This document shows, one piece after another, positions 1-29,639 of a stretch of 64,000 nt of DNA. The DNA lies in the NCBI RefSeq assembly GCF_014697575.1, contig NZ_JACJSC010000008.1, positions 29,075 to 93,074 of the forward strand, in the 5' to 3' direction. How positions within the stretch are numbered: position 1 is the stretch's first letter; every line of letters starts with the position of its first letter. Under the pieces are notes generated by a model, which was given only the letters and a program-made list of their open reading frames with translations, had not been told where the DNA came from and did no database searches. This DNA comes from Planktothrix sp. FACHB-1365 (GTDB taxonomy: Bacteria > Cyanobacteriota > Cyanobacteriia > Cyanobacteriales > Microcoleaceae). The translations under genes were made by a program, and so were the position numbers.

Positions 1-252
1 CTTTTCTGTCAAGTTCTAGCGACGGTGATTATGTTCCATAACCTGAAAAAGTTTTCATCAGGTTTTGTATCTTTATTCCTGTTGCTTGACCCAATTATTA
101 CTGCCATATTAGCCTGGGTAATATTTGCGGAAAAACTCACTATCCTTAACTGGGTAGCGTTTTTCGCCGTGTTGGCTGGGATATATTTAGCTAAATCTGC
201 TCAAGGTTCTCAGAAAGCAGCCATTCAAGAAATTACTGTTGACTCAGACTAA
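1..252 (+). CDS. C-terminal part of an EamA/DMT-family transporter (gene starts upstream of window)
   Basis: Hydrophobic TM-rich tail (…LLLDPIITAILAWVIFAEKLTILNWVAFFAVLAGIYL…) typical of the second EamA repeat. Frame is open to the window edge. Confidence 0.45.
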   Translation, partial: LFCQVLATVIMFHNLKKFSSGFVSLFLLLDPIITAILAWVIFAEKLTILNWVAFFAVLAGIYLAKSAQGSQKAAIQEITVDSD

Positions 253-1375
253 ATATTTTTGTCTCGGCTCCAATGCTAAATCAGTAATAAAAATTAGCAA
301 ATTTCAGCACCCCGTACTCTCTGTTTCTAAACATTCCATGACACCAGAATTAACAACTTGGGTAGCAGACCTAGAAAGATTACTAGGTCAAATTCTTGAA
401 TATTTCCGCAGTCAAATCTTCAATCACCTTAATGGTAGCCGTCGCCTTTATTGGCTATATTTATTAACTTCTTTGTTATTAGCTGGACTGGTTTATTGGC
501 GATCGCAACCTAAGTCTGATCTTAACTTTAAAGGGTTTCTTAATTTTTGCTTCCCCAAAGAAATCTACTTTCATCCTTCAGCCCTGCTAGATTATCAAAT
601 CTTTATCATCAATAATATTCTTGCTCCTGGTAATTTGCGTTTAGCGTGGTTTGAAACATCATTAGTAGCATCTCTAATCAATAATTGGCTGCAAGCAACC
701 TTTGGTCATTTTGGCGGATTCACAACCGAAAACTGGGGATCGCTCGTGATTTTCACCCTCTTATTTGTTGTAGTTTTTGACTTTGCATCTTACCTTAACC
801 ATGCTTGGCATCACCAATATCCTATCCTGTGGCAATTTCACAGTCTACATCATTCCAGCGAAGTCTTGACCCCCATTAGTTTATATCGTTCTCACCCCTT
901 ATATGAACTTAATAAAAAGCTGATTACTACAGCCATCAGCGCTCCTTTACAAGGAATACTGATTTATCTATTTTTTGGTAAAATCCATGTTATAACTCTA
1001 TTTGGTCTGAATTTTTTGGTCGCTCTATATTATATCGCAGGTGGTAATCTTGCCCATTCTCACATCTGGCTTTCTTATGGAAAGATAGGGAACCATATTT
1101 TTATTAGTCCAGTTCTACACCAAATTCATCACAGCATGGCACCCCAACACATTAACAAGAACTACGGGGAGTTTTTGGGAATTTGGGACTGGATGTTTGG
1201 GACTTTATATCTACCCGAAAAAGAGGAAAAATTAGAATTTGGTATTGGCAAAAACCAAACTCAGCCTTATTCAACTTTAACCCAGGCTTATTTAGATCCG
1301 GTAGTCAATGCCATTAATTTACTAATTGCCAAAATTCCTGGAAAAAGTGGAATTAAAACCATTAACTTGGATTAA
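239..1375 (+). CDS. Fatty acid hydroxylase / sterol desaturase superfamily membrane protein
   Basis: His-box motifs HxxHH (HAWHHQY, HSLHHSSE, HQIHHS) and multiple TM segments. True start is probably internal (e.g. Met near 334). Confidence 0.65.
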   Translation: MTQTKYFCLGSNAKSVIKISKFQHPVLSVSKHSMTPELTTWVADLERLLGQILEYFRSQIFNHLNGSRRLYWLYLLTSLLLAGLVYWRSQPKSDLNFKGFLNFCFPKEIYFHPSALLDYQIFIINNILAPGNLRLAWFETSLVASLINNWLQATFGHFGGFTTENWGSLVIFTLLFVVVFDFASYLNHAWHHQYPILWQFHSLHHSSEVLTPISLYRSHPLYELNKKLITTAISAPLQGILIYLFFGKIHVITLFGLNFLVALYYIAGGNLAHSHIWLSYGKIGNHIFISPVLHQIHHSMAPQHINKNYGEFLGIWDWMFGTLYLPEKEEKLEFGIGKNQTQPYSTLTQAYLDPVVNAINLLIAKIPGKSGIKTINLD

Positions 1376-1380
1376 ATATT

Positions 1381-2502
1381 ATGCTATTAACGAAAGGCTT
1401 TGAATTAGAAATATTTCTGGGTACTCCCCAAGGTGATCCGATTCCTTTGGCTGAAAAAATTATCGGCAAAGTGGATAGGTTTATGCAAGAAACAGACGAG
1501 CGCCATATAGAATATACAACTGAACCTCTTGCCAGCTATAGCCAACTTTTAAGTCAATTAATATTACCGCGAATTCAACTCAGAAAATATCTCAAAACCT
1601 TGGGAGAATATACCCTAATTCCTGGAAGTACATTATCATTAGGAGGAAGCGATCGCTTTTATCGTTCAGGAGATACAAATCCTTATTTAGAATACATTGA
1701 GCGCCACCATGGAACTAATGTCGTTACTGCTAGTGTTCATATCAACATTGGTTTTAGTGATCCAGAACTGCTGATCCGAGCTTGTCGGCTGATTAAAATG
1801 GAATCACCCTTATATTTAGCCTTAAGTGCTTCCTCTCCATTTCTTGATAATCAAATTACAGGTTATCATTCTACACGCTGGCATATTTTACCCCATTCTC
1901 AATATCATATTCCCCTATTTGAAAATCACGCCGAATATATTGAATGGGTAGAAGGACATTTAGCCACAGGGACAATGTTTAATGTTCGTCATCATTGGGA
2001 TAATGTTCGACCCAATGGCGATGGCCGACCTTATGATCTGAATCGGCTAGAACTCAGAATTTGTGATTTAGTGACAGATTCTCATTCTCTTCTGGCTATT
2101 ACTGCTTTGTTAGAAGCGCGGCTTTGGCAATTGATTAATGATCCCAGAATTGACCCTTTAGAAATGAGTCAATTACCAGCAACAACCCGGAAACAAGACT
2201 TAATTGATTTAACAAAAGCGAATGAAGCAGCCGTCAAAGTATCCAGTTTAGAAGCTGAGTTAAGACATTGGCAAGACGGTAGAAAAATTCTAGCTCGACA
2301 TTGGATTAATGAAATTTATAATGATGTTCTGCCCTTCGTAAAACAGCAAGGCTTTGATCATTTTCTCTCACCTATACAAACAATTTTACAGGAAGGAAAT
2401 ACTGCACAAAAGTGGTTAAAAATGTATGATCAAGGTGCGGATATTCGCTCAATTATTACCCAAGATATTCAAGAAATGGCCAAGCAAGAACTTGACCATT
2501 AA
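1381..2502 (+). CDS. Glutamate--cysteine ligase family 2 (YbdK/GshA-like carboxylate-amine ligase), putative cyanobacterial GshA
   Basis: ~370 aa, size and overall similarity pattern of GCS2-family cyanobacterial gamma-glutamylcysteine ligases. A glutaredoxin gene diverges from it, and it is tightly coupled to the upstream gene (stop 1375 / start 1381). Confidence 0.5.
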   Translation: MLLTKGFELEIFLGTPQGDPIPLAEKIIGKVDRFMQETDERHIEYTTEPLASYSQLLSQLILPRIQLRKYLKTLGEYTLIPGSTLSLGGSDRFYRSGDTNPYLEYIERHHGTNVVTASVHINIGFSDPELLIRACRLIKMESPLYLALSASSPFLDNQITGYHSTRWHILPHSQYHIPLFENHAEYIEWVEGHLATGTMFNVRHHWDNVRPNGDGRPYDLNRLELRICDLVTDSHSLLAITALLEARLWQLINDPRIDPLEMSQLPATTRKQDLIDLTKANEAAVKVSSLEAELRHWQDGRKILARHWINEIYNDVLPFVKQQGFDHFLSPIQTILQEGNTAQKWLKMYDQGADIRSIITQDIQEMAKQELDH

Positions 2503-2551
2503 GGCAGGTATTTTACATCCCACGCTTGAAAGACGTGGGCTTTGAATACTG

Positions 2552-2809
2552 TTATTGTAAAAGTTCGTCCAGTTTTCCCTGCTTATCTAATGCGGAAATA
2601 TCGTCAAAACCACCAATATGTTGATCATTGATGAAAATTTGAGGAACACTCCGTCTGCCATTAGCTCGTTCTGCCATCTTAGCTCTAGCGTCTTCATCCC
2701 CATCAATAGAGTATTCAGTAAATTCAACCCCTTTCTTCTTAAGTAAGGCTTTGGCTCTAGGGCAAAAAGGGCAATAAGTCCAAGTGTAAATTTCTACTTT
2801 AGCAGTCAT
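2552..2809 (-). CDS. grxC: Glutaredoxin 3
   Basis: 85 aa with active site CPFC (YTWTYCPFCPRAKALL) and the C-terminal GGFDD motif of classical dithiol glutaredoxins. Confidence 0.85.
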   Translation of the reverse strand: MTAKVEIYTWTYCPFCPRAKALLKKKGVEFTEYSIDGDEDARAKMAERANGRRSVPQIFINDQHIGGFDDISALDKQGKLDELLQ

Positions 2810-2847
2810 GGTATGTTTAATCGAGGGATATCGTTTTTTATTTTAGC

Positions 2848-4359
2848 GTGATCAACAAAATGATTAATCAGAATATCGCCTCTCCTCTACAAGTACAGAA
2901 GAGCCATGGCGCGTCTCTATGGCAAAAAATTGCCCCAAAATTTGAGGCGGTTGTAGGTAAAAAAGGAGTTGTCCAACGTCAGGAAGAATTGCTCACCTAT
3001 GAATGTGATAGTTTAACAAGCTATCGTCAACGTCCCGCATTAGTCGTACTACCCCGCACCACTGAACAAGTAGCAGAGGTAGTCAAAATCTGTTATGAAA
3101 ACCAAATTCCTTGGGTGACGCGGGGTGCAGGAACAGGTTTATCTGGAGGTGCACTACCTGTTGAAAATTGTGTTTTAATTGTCACCACCTTAATGAACCA
3201 AATCTTAAAAGTTGACCTAGAAAATCAGCGAATTATTGTGCAAGCTGGTGTAATTAATAATTGGGTGACTCAAGCCATTAGTGGTAAAGGTTTTTATTAT
3301 GCACCAGATCCGTCCAGTCAAACGGTTTGTACAATTGGAGGTAACATTGCGGAGAATGCTGGGGGTATTCATTGCTTGAAATATGGAGTAACAACGAATC
3401 ATGTTTTGGGATTAAAATTGGTAATTCCTGACGGTTCTGTAGTTGATGTTGGGGGAATCATTTCAGAAATGCCCGGTTATGATCTCACGGGTTTATTTAT
3501 CGGTTCAGAAGGCACTCTAGGTATTGCCACAGAAATTACTTTACGCATTATTAAAACACCTGAAGCCATTGGCACTGTTCTAGCAGACTTTACCACTATT
3601 GAAGCCGCAGGTGATACGGTTACTCATATTATTAGTGCTGGAATTATTCCGGCGGCAATGGAATTAATGGATGGGACTACCATTAAAGCGATTGAAGATG
3701 TTATTAATACGGGCTGTTATCCTAGAGATGCTGCGGCAGTTTTGTTGATAGAGGTTGATGGTTTAGCAGTAGAAGTTGAAAGTAGTAAACAGCAGGTTGC
3801 TAAAATTTGCCAACAAAACGGAGCCAGAAATGTAATCATTGCTAGTGACGAACAAAGGCGAATCAAACTTTGGCAAGGACGTAAAACAGCCTTAATTGCA
3901 TTAGGTTATCAAAGTCATTATTTTCTTCAAGATGGAGTGATCCCTCGGACTCAATTAGTCGCTGTTCTTAAGGAAATTTCAGCTTTAGGAAATCAATATG
4001 GGTATTGTATTGCTAATGCCCTTCATGCGGGTGATGGGAACTTACATCCAGTCATTCTTTATGATCATGCCATTCCTGGTGCTTTTAAACAGGTAGAAGA
4101 ATTAAGTGGCGAAATTCTAAAACTTTGTGTGAGAGTGGGTGGAAGTATTTCTGGAGAACATGGTATTGGTGCTGATAAAAAATGTTTGATGCCGGAAATG
4201 TTTAATCATATTGATTTAGATACCATGCAATGGCCGCGCCTAGCTTTTAATCCTCAAGGTTTGGCAAATCCAGGTAAGATGTTTCCCACACCTCCGACTT
4301 GTGGTGAAGCTGCACAGGCTCAAAAAATGGGGCGGTTTTCAGATTTAGAAGTATTTTAG
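2848..4359 (+). CDS. glcD: FAD-linked oxidase, glycolate oxidase subunit GlcD-like
   Basis: FAD-binding PCMH domain motifs (RGAGTGLSGGALP) and C-terminal FAD-oxidase_C domain (HAGDGNLHP…SGEHGIG). Start codon uncertain (N-terminal MINKMINQ). Confidence 0.75.
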   Translation: MINKMINQNIASPLQVQKSHGASLWQKIAPKFEAVVGKKGVVQRQEELLTYECDSLTSYRQRPALVVLPRTTEQVAEVVKICYENQIPWVTRGAGTGLSGGALPVENCVLIVTTLMNQILKVDLENQRIIVQAGVINNWVTQAISGKGFYYAPDPSSQTVCTIGGNIAENAGGIHCLKYGVTTNHVLGLKLVIPDGSVVDVGGIISEMPGYDLTGLFIGSEGTLGIATEITLRIIKTPEAIGTVLADFTTIEAAGDTVTHIISAGIIPAAMELMDGTTIKAIEDVINTGCYPRDAAAVLLIEVDGLAVEVESSKQQVAKICQQNGARNVIIASDEQRRIKLWQGRKTALIALGYQSHYFLQDGVIPRTQLVAVLKEISALGNQYGYCIANALHAGDGNLHPVILYDHAIPGAFKQVEELSGEILKLCVRVGGSISGEHGIGADKKCLMPEMFNHIDLDTMQWPRLAFNPQGLANPGKMFPTPPTCGEAAQAQKMGRFSDLEVF

Positions 4360-4515
4360 TGATCTGGGTTTTGGGGAGTAGGGGGCGAGGCGTTTGTCTA
4401 TGAAGCAGGAGTACCCACTGCCATTAGTGAAACGTTGACAGTGGTACTTCACTTAGGCATTGTAACAATGGTAGTATGTCGTAGATGTGCTGTATATAGC
4501 TTTTGAGTATTAATA

Positions 4516-6261
4516 ATGGGGAAAATAGAAAAAAGGGATTTAACTTTAGTAGAAATACTACGGGATCAGGCCGTTGCTCAACCTCACCAAATAGCATTTA
4601 AGTTTCTTCCAAATGGAGAACAAGAATCAGATCAATTAACCTATCAAGAATTGGATCAAAAAGCCAGAGCAATTGCCTATCAACTGGGTCAGAAAATTAA
4701 TCGGGGCGAAAGAGTATTATTATTATATCCACCCGGTTTAGAATTTATTAGTGCTTTTTTTGGATGTTTATATGCTGATGCGATCGCAGTTCCTGTTAAT
4801 CCCCCTCGACCCAACAGACCAGCAACTCGGCTTTTAACAATCAAATCAGATTCACAAGCAACATTAGCACTAACTACAACATCTTTATTCAGCAAACTCA
4901 AATCACAACTAACTCATTATCCCGAATTAGCAACTTTACCTTTAATGGTTAGTGATGAAATCAGTATTGATCTAGCTTCAAATTGGGAGAAATCAACAAC
5001 AACAATAGATTCTTTAGCTTTTCTCCAATACACATCTGGATCGACAGGAACACCAAAAGGAGTAATGGTAACTCATGGTAATTTACTCCACAATTCGCAG
5101 TATATCAAACAAGCCTTTCAACTGACACAAGACAGTATATCGGTTAGCTGGCTACCCAGTTTTCATGATATGGGTCTAATTGATGGAATTATTCAGCCTT
5201 TGTACACCGGATTTATGGGGGTATTGATGAAACCTGAAAGTTTTATCCAACACCCTTGGCGATGGCTACAGGCAATTACAAACTACAAAGCAACCCACTG
5301 CGGCGGGCCTAATTTTGCCTACGATCTTTGCGTTCAAAAGATTACCAATGAACAACTTGAAACCCTCGACCTCAGTAGCTGGGAAAGTGCTTACAGTGGT
5401 TCTGAACCCGTGCGGAGAGACACTTTAGAGCGTTTTATTGCTAAATTTGCCCCTTGTGGTTTCACGGCTAAGAGTTTTTATCCCTGCTATGGGATGGCTG
5501 AATCTACCTTAATGATTTCAGGGGGACTTGTTCAAGAAGAACCCATTTACTGCACAGTTGCAGCAGAGGCATTAGAGCAAAATGGGGTGACAGAAGCATC
5601 TAAAGACGTTGAAAATGTTAGACATCTCGTTGGATGTGGACGAGCTTGGCTAGATACCCAAATTGTCATCGTTGAACCCGAATCTTTTCAGCAATGTGAT
5701 TCAGGTCAAGTCGGGGAAATCTGGGTATCGGGTGAAAGTGTTGCTCAAGGCTATTGGAACCAACCGGAACTTTCAGAACAAGCTTTTGGAGCTTATCTAA
5801 CAGATCCGCATCAGGGGCCGTTTCTCCGCACTGGGGATCTAGGATTTTTGCGAGAGGGTGAGCTATTCATCACGGGACGGATGAAAGATATGATTATTAT
5901 TAGAGGTCGCAATTATTACCCCCAAGATATTGAAATCACAGTAGAAACTAGCCATCCAGCGTTGCGAGGCAATTGTTGTGCAGCTTTTGCAATAGAAAAA
6001 GACAATACAGAGCAGTTAGTCATAGTAGCTGAAGTCGAACGGACACATTTACGACATCTGAATGTTAAAGAGGTCGTCGCAGAAATCGGCGAAGCCATCA
6101 TGCAGCAACATGAAATCCAGGCTTATGGCACGGTACTGATTAAAACGGGGAGTATTCCTAAAACTTCCAGTGGCAAAATTCAACGGCGTATTTGCAAAGA
6201 AAAGTTTCTATGCGAAACTCTCAATATTGTCGGGGGAAAGATTGGCAAATCGGAGTTATAA
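4516..6261 (+). CDS. Fatty acyl-AMP ligase (FAAL)
   Basis: Adenylation core motifs (LQYTSGSTGTPKGVMVTHGNLL; YGMAESTL; TGDLGF) and the ~581-aa FAAL architecture. N-terminal DLTLVEILRDQA…AFKFL is typical of FAALs rather than acyl-CoA synthetases. Confidence 0.8.
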   Translation: MGKIEKRDLTLVEILRDQAVAQPHQIAFKFLPNGEQESDQLTYQELDQKARAIAYQLGQKINRGERVLLLYPPGLEFISAFFGCLYADAIAVPVNPPRPNRPATRLLTIKSDSQATLALTTTSLFSKLKSQLTHYPELATLPLMVSDEISIDLASNWEKSTTTIDSLAFLQYTSGSTGTPKGVMVTHGNLLHNSQYIKQAFQLTQDSISVSWLPSFHDMGLIDGIIQPLYTGFMGVLMKPESFIQHPWRWLQAITNYKATHCGGPNFAYDLCVQKITNEQLETLDLSSWESAYSGSEPVRRDTLERFIAKFAPCGFTAKSFYPCYGMAESTLMISGGLVQEEPIYCTVAAEALEQNGVTEASKDVENVRHLVGCGRAWLDTQIVIVEPESFQQCDSGQVGEIWVSGESVAQGYWNQPELSEQAFGAYLTDPHQGPFLRTGDLGFLREGELFITGRMKDMIIIRGRNYYPQDIEITVETSHPALRGNCCAAFAIEKDNTEQLVIVAEVERTHLRHLNVKEVVAEIGEAIMQQHEIQAYGTVLIKTGSIPKTSSGKIQRRICKEKFLCETLNIVGGKIGKSEL

Positions 6262-6321
6262 AGTCCTTTAGTTTTAAATTTTCCCCTGCTATTTAAACCT
6301 AGGTAAATTGAGGAAACATCA

Positions 6322-7308
6322 ATGTCTATACCAGTGGATAGCCCAACACCCAATATAAGCCCCAAGATCACCCTAGAAAATGATTATCTTAAATCCCTGC
6401 AACAGCGTTACGCCTTTGCTACTATCTTGATTCCTTTTTTGGGGTTATTAATAGCCATTTATACAACTTTTAAATTCGGGATTAGTTCAGTAGACATTGG
6501 ACTATTTCTGATCATGTATACCTTGACAATGCTGGGAATAACAGTGGGTTTTCACCGACATTTTGCTCACGGTGCTTTTAAGACCAATACAGTCATGAGA
6601 GTCCTGTTGGCAATATTAGGATGTATGTCCGCTCAAGGGCCAGTGATTCAATGGGCAAGTATTCACCGTCGGCATCACAAGTATAGCGATCGCCCAGGCG
6701 ATCCCCACTCCCCCTTAATATACAAAGGAGAAAAATGGGCAACTCTGCGGGGATTGTGGCATGGTCAAGTTGCTTGGATGTTGAACAGTGACGTTACCAA
6801 TACGGTTGTTTTTGCTAAAGACTTGCTCAGAGATCCAATAATTACCAAAGTCAATCGTTTCTATCTGACTTGGGTTATCCTGGGTTTAGCCATTCCGGCA
6901 ATTGTAGACGGACTTCTCACGGGAACTTGGATAGGTATTTTACAAGGATTTCTCTGGGGGGGATTGGTGCGAATCTTTTGTGTTAATCATGCCTTTTGGA
7001 CGATTAACTCCATTGCTCACTGTTATGGACAACGCCCCTTTGATACCGAAGAGCAAAGCCGCAACACATTCTGGCTATCTCTAGCCAACTTTGGAGAAGC
7101 TTGGCATAACAATCATCATGCCTTTCCCCACTCAGCCTTGTTAGGTCTGAAATGGTGGCAAATTGATATTGGTGGTGGGGTGATTCTGGCTCTCCAAAAA
7201 GTAGGTTTAGCTTGGGATCTCAAAACCCCCACAGCAGGGATGATTGCAGAGAAGTTGAAGGTTAACAAACAGTCAGAAAATTTAACAATAGATGCCAGCA
7301 ATTTCTAG
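6322..7308 (+). CDS. Membrane fatty-acid desaturase, delta-9 (DesC/SCD) family, paralog 1
   Basis: Three His boxes HRHFAHGAF / HRRHHKYSD / HNNHHAFPHS with 4 predicted TM helices. Confidence 0.8.
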   Translation: MSIPVDSPTPNISPKITLENDYLKSLQQRYAFATILIPFLGLLIAIYTTFKFGISSVDIGLFLIMYTLTMLGITVGFHRHFAHGAFKTNTVMRVLLAILGCMSAQGPVIQWASIHRRHHKYSDRPGDPHSPLIYKGEKWATLRGLWHGQVAWMLNSDVTNTVVFAKDLLRDPIITKVNRFYLTWVILGLAIPAIVDGLLTGTWIGILQGFLWGGLVRIFCVNHAFWTINSIAHCYGQRPFDTEEQSRNTFWLSLANFGEAWHNNHHAFPHSALLGLKWWQIDIGGGVILALQKVGLAWDLKTPTAGMIAEKLKVNKQSENLTIDASNF

Positions 7309-7378
7309 TAAACTAGACTGAATCTGGATTTTTTGCAGTGCCAACTTTTTCTATTGCGTCATCATGAGGAGTTAGAGA

Positions 7379-8332
7379 ATGACAACACATTGCGATAGTG
7401 CCATACCCAATCAGAAGACAAAGGTTATTAGCAATGACTACATTAAAGGACTGCAATATAAACATTTTTGGTGGTACAATTTCATTCCCTTTTTAGGAAC
7501 AATTGTGGCCATCATTTCGCTGTGGTGGCTACCCATTGGGCCAATCGAGATCGGAATGCTGATTGTGATGTGGGCTTTGACCATGACCGGGGTGAGTGTC
7601 GGTTTTCATCGCTACTATACCCATCGTGCTTTTAAAACTAACCAGAGCATTCGGGTGATATTCGCCATACTGGGTTCTGTAGCTGCCCAAGGGCCCTTAA
7701 TTTCCTGGGTAGCTGTTCATCGTCGCCATCATGAGTGCAGTGATCTACCCGGTGATCCCCATTCCCCTAATCTTCACGGTCAGGGATTTCTCGGAACTCT
7801 CAAGGGATTATGGCATTCCCATGTGGGCTGGCTGATTGATCATGATTATCCTAATCCGGCCTATTATGCCCCCGAACTCCTGCGAGATCAAAGCATATCC
7901 AAAATTAGCCGATTGTATGTAGTTTGGGTGCTTCTGGGTCTAGCGATTCCTACTGTGATCGGCGGACTACTTCATTGGTCCCTAATAGGAGCATTGCAAG
8001 GCTTTCTTTGGGGGGGTGTTGTGCGCCTGTTTATTGTAGATAACATCATATTGAGCGTTAATTCTGTATCTCATCTTTACGGGACTCGTGGTTTTAAGAC
8101 AGGCGATCAAAGCAAGAATAACCCTTGGGTGGCCATCCCAACGTTTGGCGAGTCTTGGCAAAACAATCACCATGCGTTTGAAAGCTCTGCTGCTATCGGT
8201 ATGAAAGGGTGGCAAATTGATATTGGTTATGCAGTAATTTGGATCTTGGAAAAATTAGGCTGGGCTTGGGATGTAAATCTGCCCACCGCCAAGATGATAG
8301 AGGCGAAAACAATTACCCTAGCTCAGGATTAA
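7379..8332 (+). CDS. Membrane fatty-acid desaturase, delta-9 family, paralog 2
   Basis: His boxes HRYYTHRAF / HRRHHECSD / QNNHHAFESS. Box 3 begins with Q rather than H, which is a notable variant. Confidence 0.75.
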   Translation: MTTHCDSAIPNQKTKVISNDYIKGLQYKHFWWYNFIPFLGTIVAIISLWWLPIGPIEIGMLIVMWALTMTGVSVGFHRYYTHRAFKTNQSIRVIFAILGSVAAQGPLISWVAVHRRHHECSDLPGDPHSPNLHGQGFLGTLKGLWHSHVGWLIDHDYPNPAYYAPELLRDQSISKISRLYVVWVLLGLAIPTVIGGLLHWSLIGALQGFLWGGVVRLFIVDNIILSVNSVSHLYGTRGFKTGDQSKNNPWVAIPTFGESWQNNHHAFESSAAIGMKGWQIDIGYAVIWILEKLGWAWDVNLPTAKMIEAKTITLAQD

Positions 8333-8369
8333 AGTCCCGACTACAAAACTTATGTAGGTTGAGCCAACA

Positions 8370-9302
8370 ATGCAAGCAATCACAATTAAAAGCGATCGCC
8401 TGAAAAGACAACAAGAAATTCACGGCATCAGCAATCTCATCATTCCCTTAAGCGGATCTGTAGCAGCAGTAGTCCTGGCTTTTCAGATCGGTGTTAGTGC
8501 CGTAGATATCTGGCTATTGCTGATTATGTATTTTTTAACAGCAATTGGCGTAACAGTAGGGCTGCATAGACACTTTGCCCACTGCGCCTTCGGGGCTAAT
8601 CAGACGGTGAGAATTATCCTGGCTGTCCTGGGTTCTATGGCCGCAGAAGGCCCCCTCAATTATTGGGTAGCCACCCATCGCCGTCACCACAAATACAGCG
8701 ATACCCCTGGAGATCCCCATTCTCCCTTTGTTAAAGAAGATCAAAAATTGGGCTTTTTAGAAGGGTTATGGCATTCTCATGTTGGTTGGACATTCAATCA
8801 TGAACTCACGAACACCTTTGTCTTTGCTAAAGACATGGTGCGAGATCCCATGCTGAACAGAATTAGCCAACTTTATTATTTGTGGCTATTTTTGGGGGTA
8901 GCGATTCCGGGTGTTATTGGTGGAGTAATCACCGGAACTTGGATGGGGGCCTTGACCGGAACATTATGGGGCGGCTTTCTCCGTATCTTCCTTCAACACC
9001 ATTTAGGTTTCTGGACGGTTGGCTCTTTGGCCCATCTCTTAGGAAATCGTCCCTTTGAGACTGACGACTATAGCCGCAATAACCTCTGGGTGGCTTTGTT
9101 CACCTGTGGAGAATGGCACAACAACCACCATGCTTTTCCTTATGCGGCTATTCATAGTTTCCAATGGTGGCAAATCGATGTCGGTGGCTTCGTGATTCGA
9201 CTACTCGAAAAGCTAGGTTGGGTTTGGGACTTGAAAATGCCCACAGCCGAAGCGATCGCCGCTAAAAAAAGAAAGGTTAGTGGTAATGAAGCCTGCAACT
9301 AG
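8370..9302 (+). CDS. Membrane fatty-acid desaturase, delta-9 family, paralog 3
   Basis: His boxes HRHFAHCAF / HRRHHKYSD / HNNHHAFPYA. Confidence 0.8.
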   Translation: MQAITIKSDRLKRQQEIHGISNLIIPLSGSVAAVVLAFQIGVSAVDIWLLLIMYFLTAIGVTVGLHRHFAHCAFGANQTVRIILAVLGSMAAEGPLNYWVATHRRHHKYSDTPGDPHSPFVKEDQKLGFLEGLWHSHVGWTFNHELTNTFVFAKDMVRDPMLNRISQLYYLWLFLGVAIPGVIGGVITGTWMGALTGTLWGGFLRIFLQHHLGFWTVGSLAHLLGNRPFETDDYSRNNLWVALFTCGEWHNNHHAFPYAAIHSFQWWQIDVGGFVIRLLEKLGWVWDLKMPTAEAIAAKKRKVSGNEACN

Positions 9303-9368
9303 CCTTCAAGTTAGGCATTAAACCCAGAAAAGCAATGATTAACCGCAATCATAAACCTAGCTGATCCA

Positions 9369-10334
9369 ATGATTACAGAACCTCTTGTTAATCCAGACAA
9401 AAGACAAAAAACCGTCACAGCCCCTCATCTGACAGTTCCTCAAACCATACACTTCATCTTGTTTGAAGTTGTACCTTTTTTGGGATTCATCACCGCCATT
9501 GTTTTACTATTGTTCGGAATTCCTATGACTTGGGTGGACTTAGGGCTGTTTATCAGTTTGTGGTTCTTAACTCAAATTGGCTTTACTGTGGGTTGGCATC
9601 GCCTTTTTAGCCATAATGCGTTTAAAGCCAATGTCGTTGTTAGAGTGACCTTAGCAATTCTGGGATCTATGGCAGCCCCTGGCCCCTTGCTGTTGGCAGT
9701 AGCCGCCCATCGTCGTCACCATGAATATGCCGATCAACTCGGAGATCCTCATTCTCCCCATCTTTTTGGAGAAGGAGTTACGGATCAGATCAAAGGCTTT
9801 TGGCACGCTCATGATGGCTGGTTAGCGACCAACAGAGAACACCCCAATACCATCCACTATGTTCCAGACTTACTGCGGGACAAAGCCCTAACAACAGTGA
9901 GCCGATATTATTGGCTGTGGGTGATTTTAGGACTGGTCATTCCTGCTATCCTAGGCGGAGTTTTGACAAACTCATGGCTGGGAGCTTTTCAAGGCTTTCT
10001 TTGGGGAGGACTGGTGCGGATGTTCTTTGTCAATAACCTCATCAATGGCGTCAACTCTTTTTGTCATGTCCTTGGCGGTCGCTCCTTTAATACCCCTGAT
10101 CACAGCCGGAACAATCTCTGGCTGGCTCTTCCTTCCTTGGGTGAAGGATGGCACAATAGTCACCATGCTTTTCCGCAATCAGCCATTTTTGGTTTCGACT
10201 GGTGGCAAGTTGATATCGGGGGCTGGGTTGTCCTCATTTTGGAAAAGCTGGGTTTAATTTGGGATGTCAAAATTCCTAAAGCCGATACTATCAAAGCTAA
10301 AAAAGCTTTTTTAGCCGCAAAAAAGGCAACATAG
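9369..10334 (+). CDS. Membrane fatty-acid desaturase, delta-9 family, paralog 4
   Basis: His boxes HRLFSHNAF / HRRHHEYAD / HNSHHAFPQS. Confidence 0.8.
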   Translation: MITEPLVNPDKRQKTVTAPHLTVPQTIHFILFEVVPFLGFITAIVLLLFGIPMTWVDLGLFISLWFLTQIGFTVGWHRLFSHNAFKANVVVRVTLAILGSMAAPGPLLLAVAAHRRHHEYADQLGDPHSPHLFGEGVTDQIKGFWHAHDGWLATNREHPNTIHYVPDLLRDKALTTVSRYYWLWVILGLVIPAILGGVLTNSWLGAFQGFLWGGLVRMFFVNNLINGVNSFCHVLGGRSFNTPDHSRNNLWLALPSLGEGWHNSHHAFPQSAIFGFDWWQVDIGGWVVLILEKLGLIWDVKIPKADTIKAKKAFLAAKKAT

Positions 10335-10511
10335 CAGGATACTAGAATCTATCTCCTGTACTGTCTTAATCCTGAACCTAATTTTCTTGTTTTAGCTTCT
10401 TCCGCAACGAGTGCCCCACGACTGACCCGATAGGGAAGCGTGGGATGAATTGCGGTCAGGGACTAGAATGTTCAATAATTGGTTATAATTAGAAAAAGGG
10501 GGTGATTTAAA

Positions 10512-11723
10512 GTGCTGAAGGCAACAAAAGTTAGGTTATATCCAACATCAGAACAGGAATTGGTATTAGCTAAATCGTTTGGTTGTGCAAGATGGTATTG
10601 GAATTTTGCCTTAAACACCTGTATTCAGCACTATCAAGAAACTGGTAAAAGTTTAAAACTGGCATCCTACAAAGGGATGTTACCTCAACTCAAAAAAGAA
10701 TATCCTTGGCTCAAAGAAGATTGCTATTCATCGGTTCTCCAATGTGTAGCCATAAACTTAGATAGAGCCTACAAAAACTTTTTTGAGGGACGAGCTAAAT
10801 TTCCCAATTTCAAATCTAAACATCACAAACAATCTATCCAATATCCCCAAAGTGTTACTGTTAACGGTGAATATCTAAAAGTCCCTAAGATTGGTGAAAT
10901 CAAAGCAGTATTCCACCGAGAAGTTACGGGAAAGATTAAAACGGTAACAATCTCCAAAACTTCGACTGATAAATATTTTGCTTCAATTTTATGTGAAGTG
11001 GAAGGAACTGAAGTTAAACAGTCGGGAGATCGGATTATTGGGATTGATCTGGGGTTAAAAGATTTCGCAATTACTCATAATGGAGAGAATGCAACTAAAT
11101 ATGCTAACCCTAAACATTTATGTCGTCATCAGAAAAATTTAGCCCGAAAACAGAAAAAACTCTCCCGAAAAACCAAAGGCAGTAAATCGAGAGAGAAGTT
11201 TAGAAAAACTGTAGCTAAGGTTCATGAGAAGATAGCTAATTCCCGCCAAGATTTCTTGCATAAATTATCAAGAAAATTGGTAAACGAAAGCCAAGTGATT
11301 GTCGTTGAAAACCTCAACGTCAAGGGGATGGTTAAGAACCGAAAGTTATCTCAGTCAATATCTGATGTGGGATGGGGAAAATTTGTCAACTTTATTGATT
11401 ACAAGTTGAAGCAAAAAAATGACGAACTTGTAGAAATTGATCGCTTCTTCCCCAGTTCCAAAACCTGCTCCTGTTGTGGTCATATCCTAGATGAGTTACC
11501 TCTGGATATCAGAGAATGGGATTGCCTCAATTGCCATACTCACCATGACCGTGATGAAAACGCTGCATTAAATATCAGGAATGAAGGCATCAGAATATTA
11601 ACTGAAGGCGGAGGGAACCCCGTCTTTGCCGATGGAGGCTGTGTAAGTCCACCTGCTTGTAAAAGTAAGAGGCATCGGTCTGTGAATTCGGAAGCCTACA
11701 CCGACCCGATTAGGGCGGTGTAG
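10512..11723 (+). CDS. tnpB: TnpB (OrfB) RNA-guided endonuclease of IS200/IS605 family
   Basis: N-terminus MLKATKVRLYPTSEQE, RuvC-I GIDLGLKDFA, RuvC-II VVVENLNVKGM, zinc finger CSCCGH…CLNCHTHHDRDENAALNI. GTG start. Confidence 0.9.
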   Translation: MLKATKVRLYPTSEQELVLAKSFGCARWYWNFALNTCIQHYQETGKSLKLASYKGMLPQLKKEYPWLKEDCYSSVLQCVAINLDRAYKNFFEGRAKFPNFKSKHHKQSIQYPQSVTVNGEYLKVPKIGEIKAVFHREVTGKIKTVTISKTSTDKYFASILCEVEGTEVKQSGDRIIGIDLGLKDFAITHNGENATKYANPKHLCRHQKNLARKQKKLSRKTKGSKSREKFRKTVAKVHEKIANSRQDFLHKLSRKLVNESQVIVVENLNVKGMVKNRKLSQSISDVGWGKFVNFIDYKLKQKNDELVEIDRFFPSSKTCSCCGHILDELPLDIREWDCLNCHTHHDRDENAALNIRNEGIRILTEGGGNPVFADGGCVSPPACKSKRHRSVNSEAYTDPIRAV

Positions 11724-11800
11724 GTAGTTCACAAATTTAATGTTCACTCATAAAAACCTAGAAAAAAACCTAGAAATTTAGGTTTATAATTTAGGGAATG
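11680..11800 (+). ncRNA. Putative TnpB omegaRNA/reRNA scaffold (3' end of tnpB plus RE)
   Basis: Established knowledge that TnpB guide RNAs derive from the tnpB 3' end/RE. Sequence shows the RE hairpin at 11694..11723 and the direct repeat aaaacctagaaa x2 at 11752..11775. Boundaries not determinable by eye. Confidence 0.3.
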
Positions 11801-11808
11801 GATTTTTA

Positions 11809-12153
11809 ATGACCCAATCCATTGTTCCCATTTTTGGTGAGCAAAATTTTTATCCCAGACCCATTCAGGAGAAAATTAGCATGGCAATTCAAAATCAAGA
11901 AATCGCTGTTGAAACCCACAAGAACCAATCCGCTATTCAAGGCTGGTTGGTTTCTTATATAGCCCAACTTCTGGAAATTGATCCCAAAGAAGTTGATGTT
12001 AAAGCTTCTTTTGACCGCTATGGCTTGGATTCCTCAGCGACTATTGGATTAACTAGCGATTTAGAGAACTGGTTGGGAGGTTCTATTGATCCAACGATAA
12101 CCTATGATTATCCCTCAATTGAGTCTTTATCAAAACATCTAGCTGGATCATAA
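11809..12153 (+). CDS. Stand-alone acyl carrier protein (PP-binding domain)
   Basis: 114 aa. Phosphopantetheine attachment motif FDRYGLDSSATIGLTSDLENWLG with surrounding helices typical of FAAL-partner ACPs. Confidence 0.6.
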   Translation: MTQSIVPIFGEQNFYPRPIQEKISMAIQNQEIAVETHKNQSAIQGWLVSYIAQLLEIDPKEVDVKASFDRYGLDSSATIGLTSDLENWLGGSIDPTITYDYPSIESLSKHLAGS

Positions 12154-12251
12154 GCTAATTTATTTCTGAAAAAATATTAAACCCCTTGCTATTGGCTAGG
12201 GGTTTAAAAATTAGAGATTTAAAATATTTGTAAAATTATAAATTAACAGAT

Positions 12252-12743
12252 ATGGAAACTATTAATTTCACCGTAAACCACATAAAAGTGTCTTCAGAAA
12301 AATCCTTTGCCCAAGTGACAACGGCTATAGAGTCAATGGTTGGTAAAGCTAATAATCTGATTTTTCAAAAGCTGATCGATGCAAATGCCTCTTTTACAGA
12401 AGTAGAAAATGCAGTTAAATCAATGGTGGGTAAAAATGATTTAATGATTTTTACACACCTTGAATCTGGTAAAGTGCTTTCCTTATGTGGCAAATTTAAA
12501 CAAGCTAAACTTTATATAATGGGTAATCCCCTGATTGCGAATCAAATGTTTGAAGAAGACCCGGCAGTCGGTCTTTACGTTCCCCTGCGATTGTTTGTGT
12601 ATGATGAATATAATGGCAAAACTTATATTACCTATGATCAACCTTCATCTCTATTAGGTAGATTTGAGAATCCGAAAATTTTGAGAGTTGCAGAAATGCT
12701 CGATCAAAAGCTCCAAGAATTAGTTACAATGGCTGTCCAATAG
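12252..12743 (+). CDS. DUF302 domain protein
   Basis: C-terminal segment …YIMGNPLIANQMFEEDPAVGLYVPLRLFVYDEYNGKTYITYDQPSSL matches the DUF302 consensus (FGNP…G…L……lDLPLkvlvwed.dGkv.vsY..P). Confidence 0.5.
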   Translation: METINFTVNHIKVSSEKSFAQVTTAIESMVGKANNLIFQKLIDANASFTEVENAVKSMVGKNDLMIFTHLESGKVLSLCGKFKQAKLYIMGNPLIANQMFEEDPAVGLYVPLRLFVYDEYNGKTYITYDQPSSLLGRFENPKILRVAEMLDQKLQELVTMAVQ

Positions 12744-12875
12744 TATAGCAAAAATTAGAATTAACCCGGAGTTTAGTATTGGTGAACGACCCCTTCTTCA
12801 GTATCCCGGTTAATTGAGGGTTATGTTTACTGTAGAGAGGGTTTAGGAGATCTACACTCAAAAATCTTATATGAA

Positions 12876-13082
12876 TCAACTTTTAGGGGTTGCAAAACCA
12901 GAGTAACGGGGAAGAAAGATTATGGTTCCCCCGTCGATTTGAAAACGGTTTTGTTGTTGAGTGACGGTAGAATTTATCGGTAAGGTTCCATCTGGGATGA
13001 TTTGAGCTTGAACAGAGATAGACGCACTGGTTAGGGTGAAGGCAATCAGACCTAATGGCCATTGGGGGGATGTCATGGGCAC
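12876..13082 (-). pseudogene. Remnant N-terminus of a TpsA/CHAT-type secreted protein (haemagglutination-activity TPS domain)
   Basis: Signal peptide followed by QIIPDGTLPINSTVTQQQNRFQIDGGT, the hallmark start of the TPS domain. The ORF then terminates after 68 aa with no continuation. Confidence 0.45.
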
Positions 13083-13399
13083 AAAAGAGGAACTGAGTTT
13101 AAATTCTCTCTTGAGTATATCAGGAAACTGTCGCGTGCGGTTGTTATCGGAAACAGGACTTACGCAGTGACGCTACAGATATAGCACTACGCATTACAGT
13201 TAGGACATTTCTAAATCCTGAAACCCTTTCACTTCTTACTGTTCGGTGTTCGGTGTTCGGTGTTCCCTCTTCAAGTAGCGCTATAGCGTCACTGGGTAAG
13301 TCCTGAGATGTTAATGGGATAAAGTCGATATCCCTGGAAAATAAGATTTAATTTTATCCTTCATAGTTTTGTAAAGTTAGTAAGGGGTTCACGTTTCTA

Positions 13400-29553: not shown

Positions 29554-29639
29554 AAGGATTTTATAGCAGGGAACAGGGAACAGGGAACAGTAAGAAGTGA
29601 AAGGGTTTCAGCTTTCTATATATCTGATAATTTTAGCTT

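Follow-up and report, generated by a model that had tools for sequence, protein, structure and literature searches.

Gene content of the locus

The window analysed here is a 64,000-nucleotide stretch of the cyanobacterium Planktothrix sp. FACHB-1365 (contig NZ_JACJSC010000008.1, positions 29,075 to 93,074), the left part of which carries a cassette comprising one fatty acyl-AMP ligase (FAAL), four consecutive membrane desaturases (Des1 to Des4) and a stand-alone acyl carrier protein (ACP). The gene order was taken from a program-made list of open reading frames (ORFs) together with Pfam and NCBIfam profile searches (Table 1). It agrees with an earlier note on this DNA, made by a model from the letters alone, which had read a FAAL and four desaturases on the same strand, with a TnpB element and a GLDSS-bearing carrier protein downstream. 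All cassette ORFs are full length, and FAAL lies 60 bp upstream of Des1. Judged from its sequence, the region is a putative half-cluster for loading and desaturating a lipid, part of a cyanobacterial natural-product cluster that is still uncharacterised, in which Des2 is assigned as the orthologue of JamB, the acetylenase of the jamaicamide pathway.

Table 1. Features in the left part of the window (positions are those of the window)
Feature	Position	Strand	Evidence
EamA-family transporter gene, 3' end (last 83 residues)	1-249	+	96% identical to EamA of the Planktothrix-type contig L081
Fatty-acid hydroxylase superfamily protein (di-iron)	239-1375	+	PF04116 2e-20; weak OlsE-like NCBIfam match only
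gshA, cyanobacterial glutamate-cysteine ligase	1381-2502	+	TIGR02048 547 bits vs cutoff 249
Glutaredoxin (grx)	2552-2809	-	PF00462 2e-24; 96% identity with its Anabaena UHCC 0187 counterpart
GlcD-like FAD-linked oxidase	2848-4359	+	FAD_binding_4 and FAD-oxidase_C; TIGR00387 558.8 bits, slightly below cutoff 567.9
FAAL (putative JamA-type loader)	4516-6261	+	AMP-binding 1.5e-68; NCBIfam fatty-acid--AMP ligases; FAAL matches in the Protein Data Bank (PDB)
Des1 (HNNHH)	6322-7308	+	PF00487
Des2 (QNNHH)	7379-8332	+	PF00487
Des3 (GS..H)	8370-9302	+	PF00487
Des4 (HNSHH)	9369-10334	+	PF00487
TnpB-only IS200/IS605-family element; tnpB 10512-11723	10396-11732	+	TnpB domains and empty-site comparison
ACP, 90 aa, GLDSS serine	11881-12153	+	PF00550 1e-13
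DUF302 protein	12252-12743	+	PF03625
Transporters	from 13400	-	ORF list and Pfam/NCBIfam

FAAL and ACP as a putative loading pair

A PDB search with FAAL returned 7R7E-G as the best match (E = 2e-184), followed by 3KXW, FadD32, FadD23 and FadD28, and the top NCBIfam matches are fatty-acid--AMP ligases, each of which scores under its own cutoff. The protein is 81% identical to its orthologue in Anabaena and 67% identical to that in Xenococcaceae.

The ACP had been given as 114 residues long, which did not hold: the ORF that starts at 11809 is too long, and the start is placed at 11881, because the orthologues have 90 residues, similarity to the nostocalean copies sets in again at 11842 and an AGGAG precedes the ATG at 11881. 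The gene of FACHB-1365 thus retains both a ribosome-binding site and a start codon. The serine of the motif FDRYGLDSS is kept in every aligned ACP, including the JamC-type ACP of Moorena producens PAL and the ACP of a Streptomyces polyyne cluster; the modifiable serine, the loss of which the earlier note had named as grounds for abandoning its reading, is therefore in place. The domain assignments, the conserved cassette and the link to JamB described below all support the view, already taken in that note, that FAAL and ACP could act as the loading pair of a secondary lipid pathway.

Directly past the ACP stop codon, an inverted repeat with 18-nt arms around a 5-nt loop (AAATATTAAACCCCTTGC / GCTAGGGGTTTAAAAATT, window 12172-12212) may form a transcript-end or processing hairpin between ACP and the DUF302 gene. 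The DUF302 gene accompanies the cassette in Planktothrix and the nostocalean copies, and is not present between ACP and the polyketide synthase (PKS) gene of the metagenomic contig L085. A PDB search with the DUF302 protein gave only weak matches, all to uncharacterised proteins.

Four old desaturase paralogs

Sequence alignment confirmed that the HRxxxH, HRRHH and (H/Q)NxHH boxes are intact in each desaturase, and that the third box reads QNNHH in Des2, where Q replaces the first histidine. The desaturases also contain an NS..H motif, except Des3, which has GS..H with a glycine replacing N265 of SCD1. Hydrophobic segments near residues 25-110 and 165-225 follow an SCD1-like pattern, with a single long N-terminal stretch (residues 17-67) in Des3 instead of the first group, and Des1 matches mouse SCD1 (PDB 4YMK) with E = 2e-31. 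By their histidine boxes, the position of the NS..H motif and the hydrophobic segments, all four are members of the SCD1-type (delta-9) superfamily.

Sharing only 46-50% pairwise identity, Des1 to Des4 are old duplicates. Each forms its own orthogroup across Planktothrix, Anabaena and Xenococcaceae with 100% bootstrap support, and the ratio of nonsynonymous to synonymous substitution rates (dN/dS) is low, at 0.09-0.15 against Anabaena and 0.08-0.15 against Xenococcaceae, the values for Des3 and Des4 being 0.11 and 0.09, respectively. Separate conserved orthogroups and purifying selection therefore point to individually conserved paralogs of long standing and not to a recent amplification, as had been proposed from the divergence of the four sequences.

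The trees were built by neighbour-joining, one of them from 74 sequences, and include no Cay desaturase, no confirmed Pgn desaturase and no cyanobacterial DesC. The grouping of Des2 with Des4, supported at 96% and 72% in trees without authentic JamB, fell to 13% after JamB-clade sequences were added. No close single-copy relative of Des3 or Des4 turned up within the sample.

The desaturase genes (6322-10334) also stand out in their third-position GC content, which is 0.42-0.47 compared to 0.31 for FAAL and ACP and 0.26-0.34 for the flanking genes. The same trend, weaker but present, was found in the copies of Anabaena (L001), Xenococcaceae (L004) and the metagenomic contig L085.

Des2 is assigned as the JamB orthologue

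A similarity search with Des2 retrieved a protein of Moorena producens JHB (P0255) that is 70% identical to Des2 and bears the UniRef name 'Hex-5-enoyl-[acyl-carrier protein] acetylenase'. Its locus (L090, jamA-E) reads jamA-jamB-jamC, followed by a gene for a 683-aa protein and then by a PKS gene, from which we take P0255 to be authentic JamB. The third box of JamB is QNNHH, the same as in Des2. In the 74-sequence tree the clade of Des2 and JamB is supported at 93%, with QxxHH in 16 of its 18 members. Altogether, the identity, the shared box and the tree identify Des2 as a JamB orthologue at the sequence level. The earlier note had rightly read QNNHH in the second paralog; what it took for mere divergence is a signature of the JamB clade. 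JamB itself carries out desaturation, then acetylenation, of an acyl chain held on JamC (PMC8341276, PMC10088813).

Des1 falls into a separate group of desaturases that are encoded between FAAL and ACP upstream of a PKS, as in Moorena producens PAL and a Nostoc locus (L008); a PKS match is present in these two loci and in a Tolypothrix locus (L006). Des1 and the desaturase of the FAAL-Des-ACP-PKS locus of M. producens PAL are 62% identical by alignment and 63% by BLASTP. In early trees that lacked authentic JamB, Des1 appeared as the JamB equivalent, an assignment that was dropped once the Des2 search had retrieved JamB itself.

A partner PKS and a putative exporter beyond the left edge

No ORF in the window exceeds 1000 aa, so the statement that the window holds neither a PKS nor a nonribosomal peptide synthetase (NRPS) is literally true; a partner PKS nevertheless lies just outside the left edge. 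Since window 1-249 is the 3' end of the neighbouring EamA gene, the PKS gene is expected to run on the opposite strand, with its start about 1.2 kb beyond that edge. In close relatives the PKS has ~1,620-1,660 aa and is a neighbour of the EamA gene, which adjoins the PKS start in L081, in Planktothrix tepida PCC 9214 (L096) and in Aphanizomenon (L094), and follows the PKS in L085. In the metagenomic contigs L085 and L086, the Des1 of which is 79% identical to ours, the gene next to ACP, read in the same direction, encodes a PKS of 1712 aa, and EamA comes after it. PKS orthologues with 72-81% identity lie at most ~6 kb from the cassette in Anabaena sp. UHCC 0187, an uncultured cyanobacterium and L081. 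In P. tepida and Aphanizomenon (L094/L098), a PKS gene with the same domain set occupies the equivalent place, again at most ~6 kb away.

Pfam and NCBIfam assign the 1712-aa PKS the domain order ketosynthase (KS, with the motif DTACSS)-acyltransferase (AT)-ACP-luciferase-like monooxygenase (LLM)-thioesterase (TE). The monooxygenase domain belongs to the MupA/Atu3671 family (TIGR04020, 495 bits vs a cutoff of 244). A search for characterised homologues of the LLM-TE part found none and returned only proteins annotated as 'natural product biosynthesis luciferase-like monooxygenase'. The AT domain may be atypical, with DIAFHS in place of SHAFHS. This conserved PKS and the putative exporter, encoded just past the window edge as parts of one co-inherited set, narrow the product class to some extent. 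Strain PCC 9214 has been listed with the orphan PKS-like clusters PPL2 and PPL3 (PMC5259702), and the present PKS may correspond to one of the two.

Distribution and probable horizontal transfer of the gene set

The PKS and the cassette are parts of a gene set of ~20 kb and 14 genes, which stays together in every complete copy with varying gene order and includes PKS, EamA, the hydroxylase-family gene, gshA, grx, the glcD-like gene, FAAL, Des1 to Des4, ACP and DUF302. The hydroxylase-superfamily gene is a constant companion of the set and adjoins EamA in L001, L005, L081, L094, L096 and L098.

A scan of ~185,000 species representatives, with one genome per species, revealed Des2 orthologues of at least 77% identity in five species. 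Four of them (Anabaena sp. UHCC 0187, Dolichospermum sp. LEGE 00240, a metagenome-assembled genome (MAG) of Xenococcaceae and an uncultured cyanobacterium) have the complete order FAAL-Des1-Des2-Des3-Des4-ACP. In the fifth, a MAG of Nostoc sp. P3034 (L003), a Des2 orthologue of 84% identity, with HNNHH and not QNNHH, sits behind a 61-residue fragment of Des1, and looks like the remnant of a four-gene set; the neighbouring cluster (L003 2104-11131) consists of FAAL, acyl-CoA dehydrogenase, Des, ACP, acyl-CoA dehydrogenase, Des and ACP. Sequence-cluster look-ups added Planktothrix mougeotii, P. tepida, P. pseudagardhii, Planktothrix sp. FACHB-1365 and Aphanizomenon sp. CS-733/32. The synteny of FAAL, four desaturases and ACP without the insertion element, for which the earlier note had suggested a search, is thus found in Planktothrix, Anabaena, Dolichospermum, Xenococcaceae and metagenomes. 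In the Xenococcaceae MAG (L004 3503-7075), the gene of an NRPS-like protein of 1190 aa, with formyltransferase, condensation, adenylation and peptidyl carrier domains, lies directly upstream of FAAL, and the contig ends just past ACP.

The set is arranged as PKS< EamA> ... glcD> FAAL> ... DUF302> in Planktothrix, as FAAL> ... DUF302> <glcD ... <EamA PKS> in Anabaena UHCC 0187, and as Des2> ... DUF302> <glcD ... <EamA PKS> FAAL> Des1> in Aphanizomenon. The order in Aphanizomenon sp. CS-733/32 (L098 and L094 on one contig, JAQMSE010000054.1; also L097 and L099) is a circular permutation of that in Anabaena UHCC 0187, with FAAL-Des1 after the PKS and Des2-Des4-ACP-DUF302 at the opposite end. This permutation hints at either excision and re-integration of a circle or a tandem duplication that was later resolved.

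The Planktothrix and nostocalean copies share 83-88% DNA identity, which ends at the edges of the gene set, although their hosts belong to different orders, Oscillatoriales and Nostocales, with a deep divergence between them. The synonymous divergence (dS) from Anabaena UHCC 0187 is alike for the cluster genes, gshA and glcD, at 0.40-0.59 (0.40 for gshA and 0.50 for glcD). From this identity and dS across deeply diverged orders, we infer that Planktothrix and the Anabaena/Aphanizomenon group have exchanged the whole set, gshA, grx and the GlcD-like oxidase included, by horizontal transfer. The possibility that gshA, grx and glcD are housekeeping genes that split the cluster was rejected, as their dS equals that of the cluster genes and they travel with it through every rearrangement. 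By these measures the three genes are co-inherited with the cluster, and their role in the pathway is putative.

Full-text searching of the literature found no paper that describes this cluster, and Anabaena UHCC 0187 was reported to encode 'no known BGCs', that is, biosynthetic gene clusters (PMC7232259).

A recent insertion and other strain-specific segments

The earlier note had an insertion sequence (IS) splitting the cassette between Des4 and ACP, and comparison with two near relatives bears this out. Window 1-10395 is 97.8% identical to P. tepida PCC 9214, and the second Planktothrix-type contig (L081) is 95% identical; both have an empty site, namely an uninterrupted Des4-ACP spacer. 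The element spans 1337 bp between TTGTTTTAG and AAATTTAATG, with no target duplication. Bounds of 10341-11803, drawn from the distant copies L001 and L002, were replaced after comparison with these 95-98% identical relatives. Its TnpB has HTH, OrfB and TNB domains and is not accompanied by a TnpA, which fits a TnpB-only IS200/IS605 element. The element is oriented the same way as the operon and has no other copy within the window; a search of a plasmid collection gave no better than a 74% match, to a Nostoc tnpB. By the comparison of these genomes, it is assigned as a recent insertion private to FACHB-1365. It may lower the expression of ACP, without breaking any coding sequence.

An Rfam scan matched no RNA associated with IS ends, and no inverted repeats flank the cassette. 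A promoter and terminator scan was uninformative, with fewer promoter-like sites than in a shuffled control and about as many terminator-like sites, none of which lies inside the IS. The most abundant IS family in Planktothrix is IS200/IS605, which rearranges biosynthetic gene clusters there (PMC9366434).

Two further segments vary among the Planktothrix copies. In P. tepida PCC 9214 (L096 1414-2649), a different TnpB gene, encoding 411 aa, lies between PKS and EamA, where L081 has none; TnpB elements have therefore struck the cluster at least twice in Planktothrix. In FACHB-1365, a 596-bp segment between DUF302 and a CitMHS transporter gene (window 12800-13395) is missing from L081 and L096. 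Within it lie an inverted repeat with 25-nt arms (13154-13178 / 13281-13305, 92% complementary) and roughly four GTGTTCG units in tandem, and a 41-nt piece of the segment recurs at window 29571-29611. This segment may be a small non-autonomous mobile element.

Proposed pathway and alternative readings

We propose that FAAL adenylates a free fatty acid and loads it onto the dedicated 90-aa ACP, as its homology to JamA/JamC and PgnD/PgnG suggests, and that the four SCD1/JamB-family membrane di-iron desaturases would then act on the ACP-tethered chain. Given its homology to JamB, Des2 would most likely convert a terminal alkene into a terminal alkyne, and Des1, Des3 and Des4 might add more double or triple bonds. 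Ferredoxin, the usual electron donor of cyanobacterial acyl-lipid desaturases, would supply the electrons, given that no rubredoxin gene was found. The unsaturated acyl-ACP would next be handed to the PKS, the domain order of which suggests the addition of one C2 unit, oxygenation by the MupA-family domain and release by the TE, and EamA would export the product. The conserved cassette, the four orthogroups and the JamB orthology support the earlier suggestion that four dedicated desaturases may work on a tethered chain. We consider thiotemplated multi-desaturation feeding a PKS the likely function of the set. The product is probably a hitherto undescribed highly unsaturated lipid; the chances that it has at least one triple bond seem about even, and a conjugated polyyne is a tentative, rather unlikely assignment.

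Several points weigh against this proposal. The PKS of Planktothrix is encoded on the other strand, with five genes between it and FAAL, co-inheritance being the one argument for coupling the two, and the AT motif of the PKS reads GYSLGE (L081, residue 624) or GYCIGE (L085, residue 627), not GHSxGE. The acyl chain may be short or long, as FAAL substrates range from C6 for JamA and C10 for TtuA to C14-C18 for the polyyne ligase PgnD. A desaturase and an acetylenase are not separable by sequence, and the correlation with QxxHH draws on one characterised enzyme. In the neighbour-joining trees the deep nodes are weak (7-69%), in addition to the missing Cay and confirmed Pgn desaturases. The IS could silence ACP in FACHB-1365, and the pathway is predicted from gene content.

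The same architecture could yield double bonds only, conjugated or skipped, if Des2 had diverged from the function of JamB, and the product would then be a polyene lipid. The SCD1 family consists mostly of plain desaturases, the JamB clade has a single characterised member, and the polyunsaturated acyl chains of cyanobacterial lipopeptides such as the anabaenolysins have been attributed to a desaturase (PMC10088813). However, Des2 has both the QNNHH box and the FAAL/ACP context of JamB at 70% identity, and the characterised FAAL/ACP cassettes with several desaturases have so far yielded polyynes (PMC8406139, PMC9828172). We regard a polyene lipid as unlikely.

The pathway might also be switched off or decaying in FACHB-1365, with ACP uncoupled by the IS and the rearranged set persisting as a relic. 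The position of the IS in the Des4-ACP spacer, the 596-bp strain-only segment, the different TnpB copy in PCC 9214 and the rearrangement of clusters by IS200/IS605 in this genus are in line with such a fate. Nevertheless, the ORFs are full length, ACP keeps its ribosome-binding site and start codon, and the IS is co-oriented with the operon and contains no terminator-like site, as far as a scan that was uninformative against its shuffled control can tell; the insertion is also too recent for decay to be visible. We regard a relic as improbable.

Finally, that the four genes are housekeeping DesC-type membrane-lipid desaturases placed next to FAAL and ACP by chance is hardly credible: despite their delta-9 superfamily membership and public annotation as 'acyl-CoA desaturase' or 'stearoyl-CoA desaturase', Des2 orthologues occur in just five species of the scan, in four within the complete cassette and in the fifth as a remnant beside another FAAL/ACP cluster, all four paralogs group with FAAL/ACP-linked desaturases including JamB in trees that hold no cyanobacterial DesC, and the set is mobile between orders. 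Scattered housekeeping copies, which would have told against the earlier note, are thus not what the scan of species representatives turned up.

Significance

As of 2021, the only known cyanobacterial polyynes were fischerellins A and B, the genes of which were not identified (PMC8406139). With its JamB orthologue, the conserved four-desaturase cassette offers a concrete and testable lead to new alkyne or polyyne chemistry, and it occurs in bloom-forming cyanobacteria that can be cultured. The four related enzymes, with Q-for-H and G-for-N split across two paralogs, also form a natural set for finding what distinguishes a desaturase from an acetylenase. Terminal-alkyne cassettes are, moreover, in use for labelling natural products so that they can undergo click reactions. 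Polyynes from Proteobacteria are lethal to algae and fungi (PMC8379975, PMC9098870), and a similar compound exchanged between Planktothrix and the Anabaena/Aphanizomenon group could affect the ecology of blooms.

In its boldest form, the proposal would make this the first cyanobacterial conjugated-polyyne pathway, with a fourfold JamB-family expansion that took place independently of the desaturase triad of Proteobacteria and Actinobacteria, a minimal PKS-monooxygenase-TE coupled to it, self-protection by glutathione, and an allelochemical or toxin island that is mobile among bloom genera. We hold this combination to be doubtful. If it were true, gshA and grx would shield the producer against its own electrophilic product, and the island moving among Planktothrix, Aphanizomenon, Dolichospermum and Anabaena would be an unrecognised bloom-associated allelochemical or toxin locus.

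Comparison with known systems

The cassette most closely invites comparison with JamABC of the jamaicamide pathway in Moorena producens JHB, and with CamABC and TtuABC. In all of them, the genes for a loader of the FAAL type, for a membrane desaturase/acetylenase and for a dedicated ACP share a strand. Three features of a JamABC-type cassette are found here, namely a FAAL adjoining a desaturase, a JamB-clade desaturase with QNNHH (Des2) and a stand-alone ACP with its serine, and the FDRYGLDSS motif of this ACP is identical in the JamC-type ACP of the Moorena PAL cassette. The systems differ in the number of desaturases, one there compared to four here, three of which are outside the JamB clade. 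JamABC feeds a type I PKS; here the PKS that would take over the chain is contiguous with the cassette in L085 and L086, near it in the other copies and beyond the window in FACHB-1365. Furthermore, a long PKS/NRPS line follows JamABC, whereas the present set has a single KS-AT-ACP-LLM-TE module.

Similar, likewise uncharacterised cassettes occur in other cyanobacteria, where they include a JamB-clade desaturase (Merismopedia glauca L091, L092, L093), and on plasmids of Burkholderia gladioli (L083 and L084); they mostly comprise FAAL, two desaturases and ACP, often with KS/PKS and TE. They differ from the present cluster in having only one or two desaturases and other tailoring genes, such as those for a methyltransferase, a P450, a CylC-type halogenase or an NRPS. 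L093 has a single desaturase with FAAL, ACP, a CylC-like halogenase and a PKS-NRPS. The two Burkholderia loci lie on conjugative plasmids of B. gladioli BSR3, each with FAAL, two desaturases, ACP and a methyltransferase. L083 has in addition a PKS, a second ACP, a P450 and an alpha/beta hydrolase; L084 has an amidohydrolase, a PaaI-family thioesterase and an alpha/beta hydrolase, and neither PKS nor P450. Both lack rubredoxin and a delta-12-type desaturase, and are in this respect unlike the published polyyne core.

That core consists of seven genes, which are jamABC homologues with two further desaturases, one thioesterase gene and one for rubredoxin (PMC8406139), and polyyne formation is thiotemplated and requires the FAAL, the ACP, all three desaturases and the thioesterase (PMC9828172). 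A Streptomyces goshikiensis plasmid (L088), which encodes FAAL, Des, Des, ACP, a fatty acid desaturase, an alpha/beta hydrolase, a rubredoxin and a P450, matches it. The delta-12-like desaturase of polyyne clusters is known as CayE or PgnH. With the polyyne clusters cay, pgn, ccn and col, the present cluster would share the logic of thiotemplated multi-desaturation by FAAL, ACP and at least three desaturases, with release by a thioesterase (PMC8406139, PMC9828172), and it has three desaturases (Des1, Des3 and Des4) beyond the jamABC homologues, where the core has two. The delta-12-type desaturase of L088, however, has no significant BLAST similarity to Des1 to Des4 (best E = 0.008). No rubredoxin motif was found in the 64-kb window and no rubredoxin Pfam match in the related loci. 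Gene calls for the window, L081, L085 and L096 include no discrete thioesterase gene, the TE being present only as the C-terminal domain of the PKS. For want of these three components, we place the cluster outside the polyyne family.

In the neighbour-joining trees, which hold no Cay or confirmed Pgn sequence, Des1 to Des4 fall among cyanobacterial JamB-like proteins with 74% support and stand away from the DesA and DesB of actinobacterial polyyne clusters. The actinobacterial polyyne 'DesB' proteins carry QxxHH and GS..H together, features that are split here between Des2 (Q) and Des3 (G), and these metal-site substitutions may mark acetylenase-type chemistry. The loading and desaturation reading of the earlier note holds, and to it we add the link to JamABC and the polyyne pathways, which it had not drawn. 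What is already known is the pathway logic of these two systems; what is new is an uncharacterised JamB-family cluster with four desaturases. Overall, the cluster looks like a system that would operate in the manner of JamABC and the polyyne pathways and that arose as an independent expansion within the cyanobacterial JamB-like radiation.

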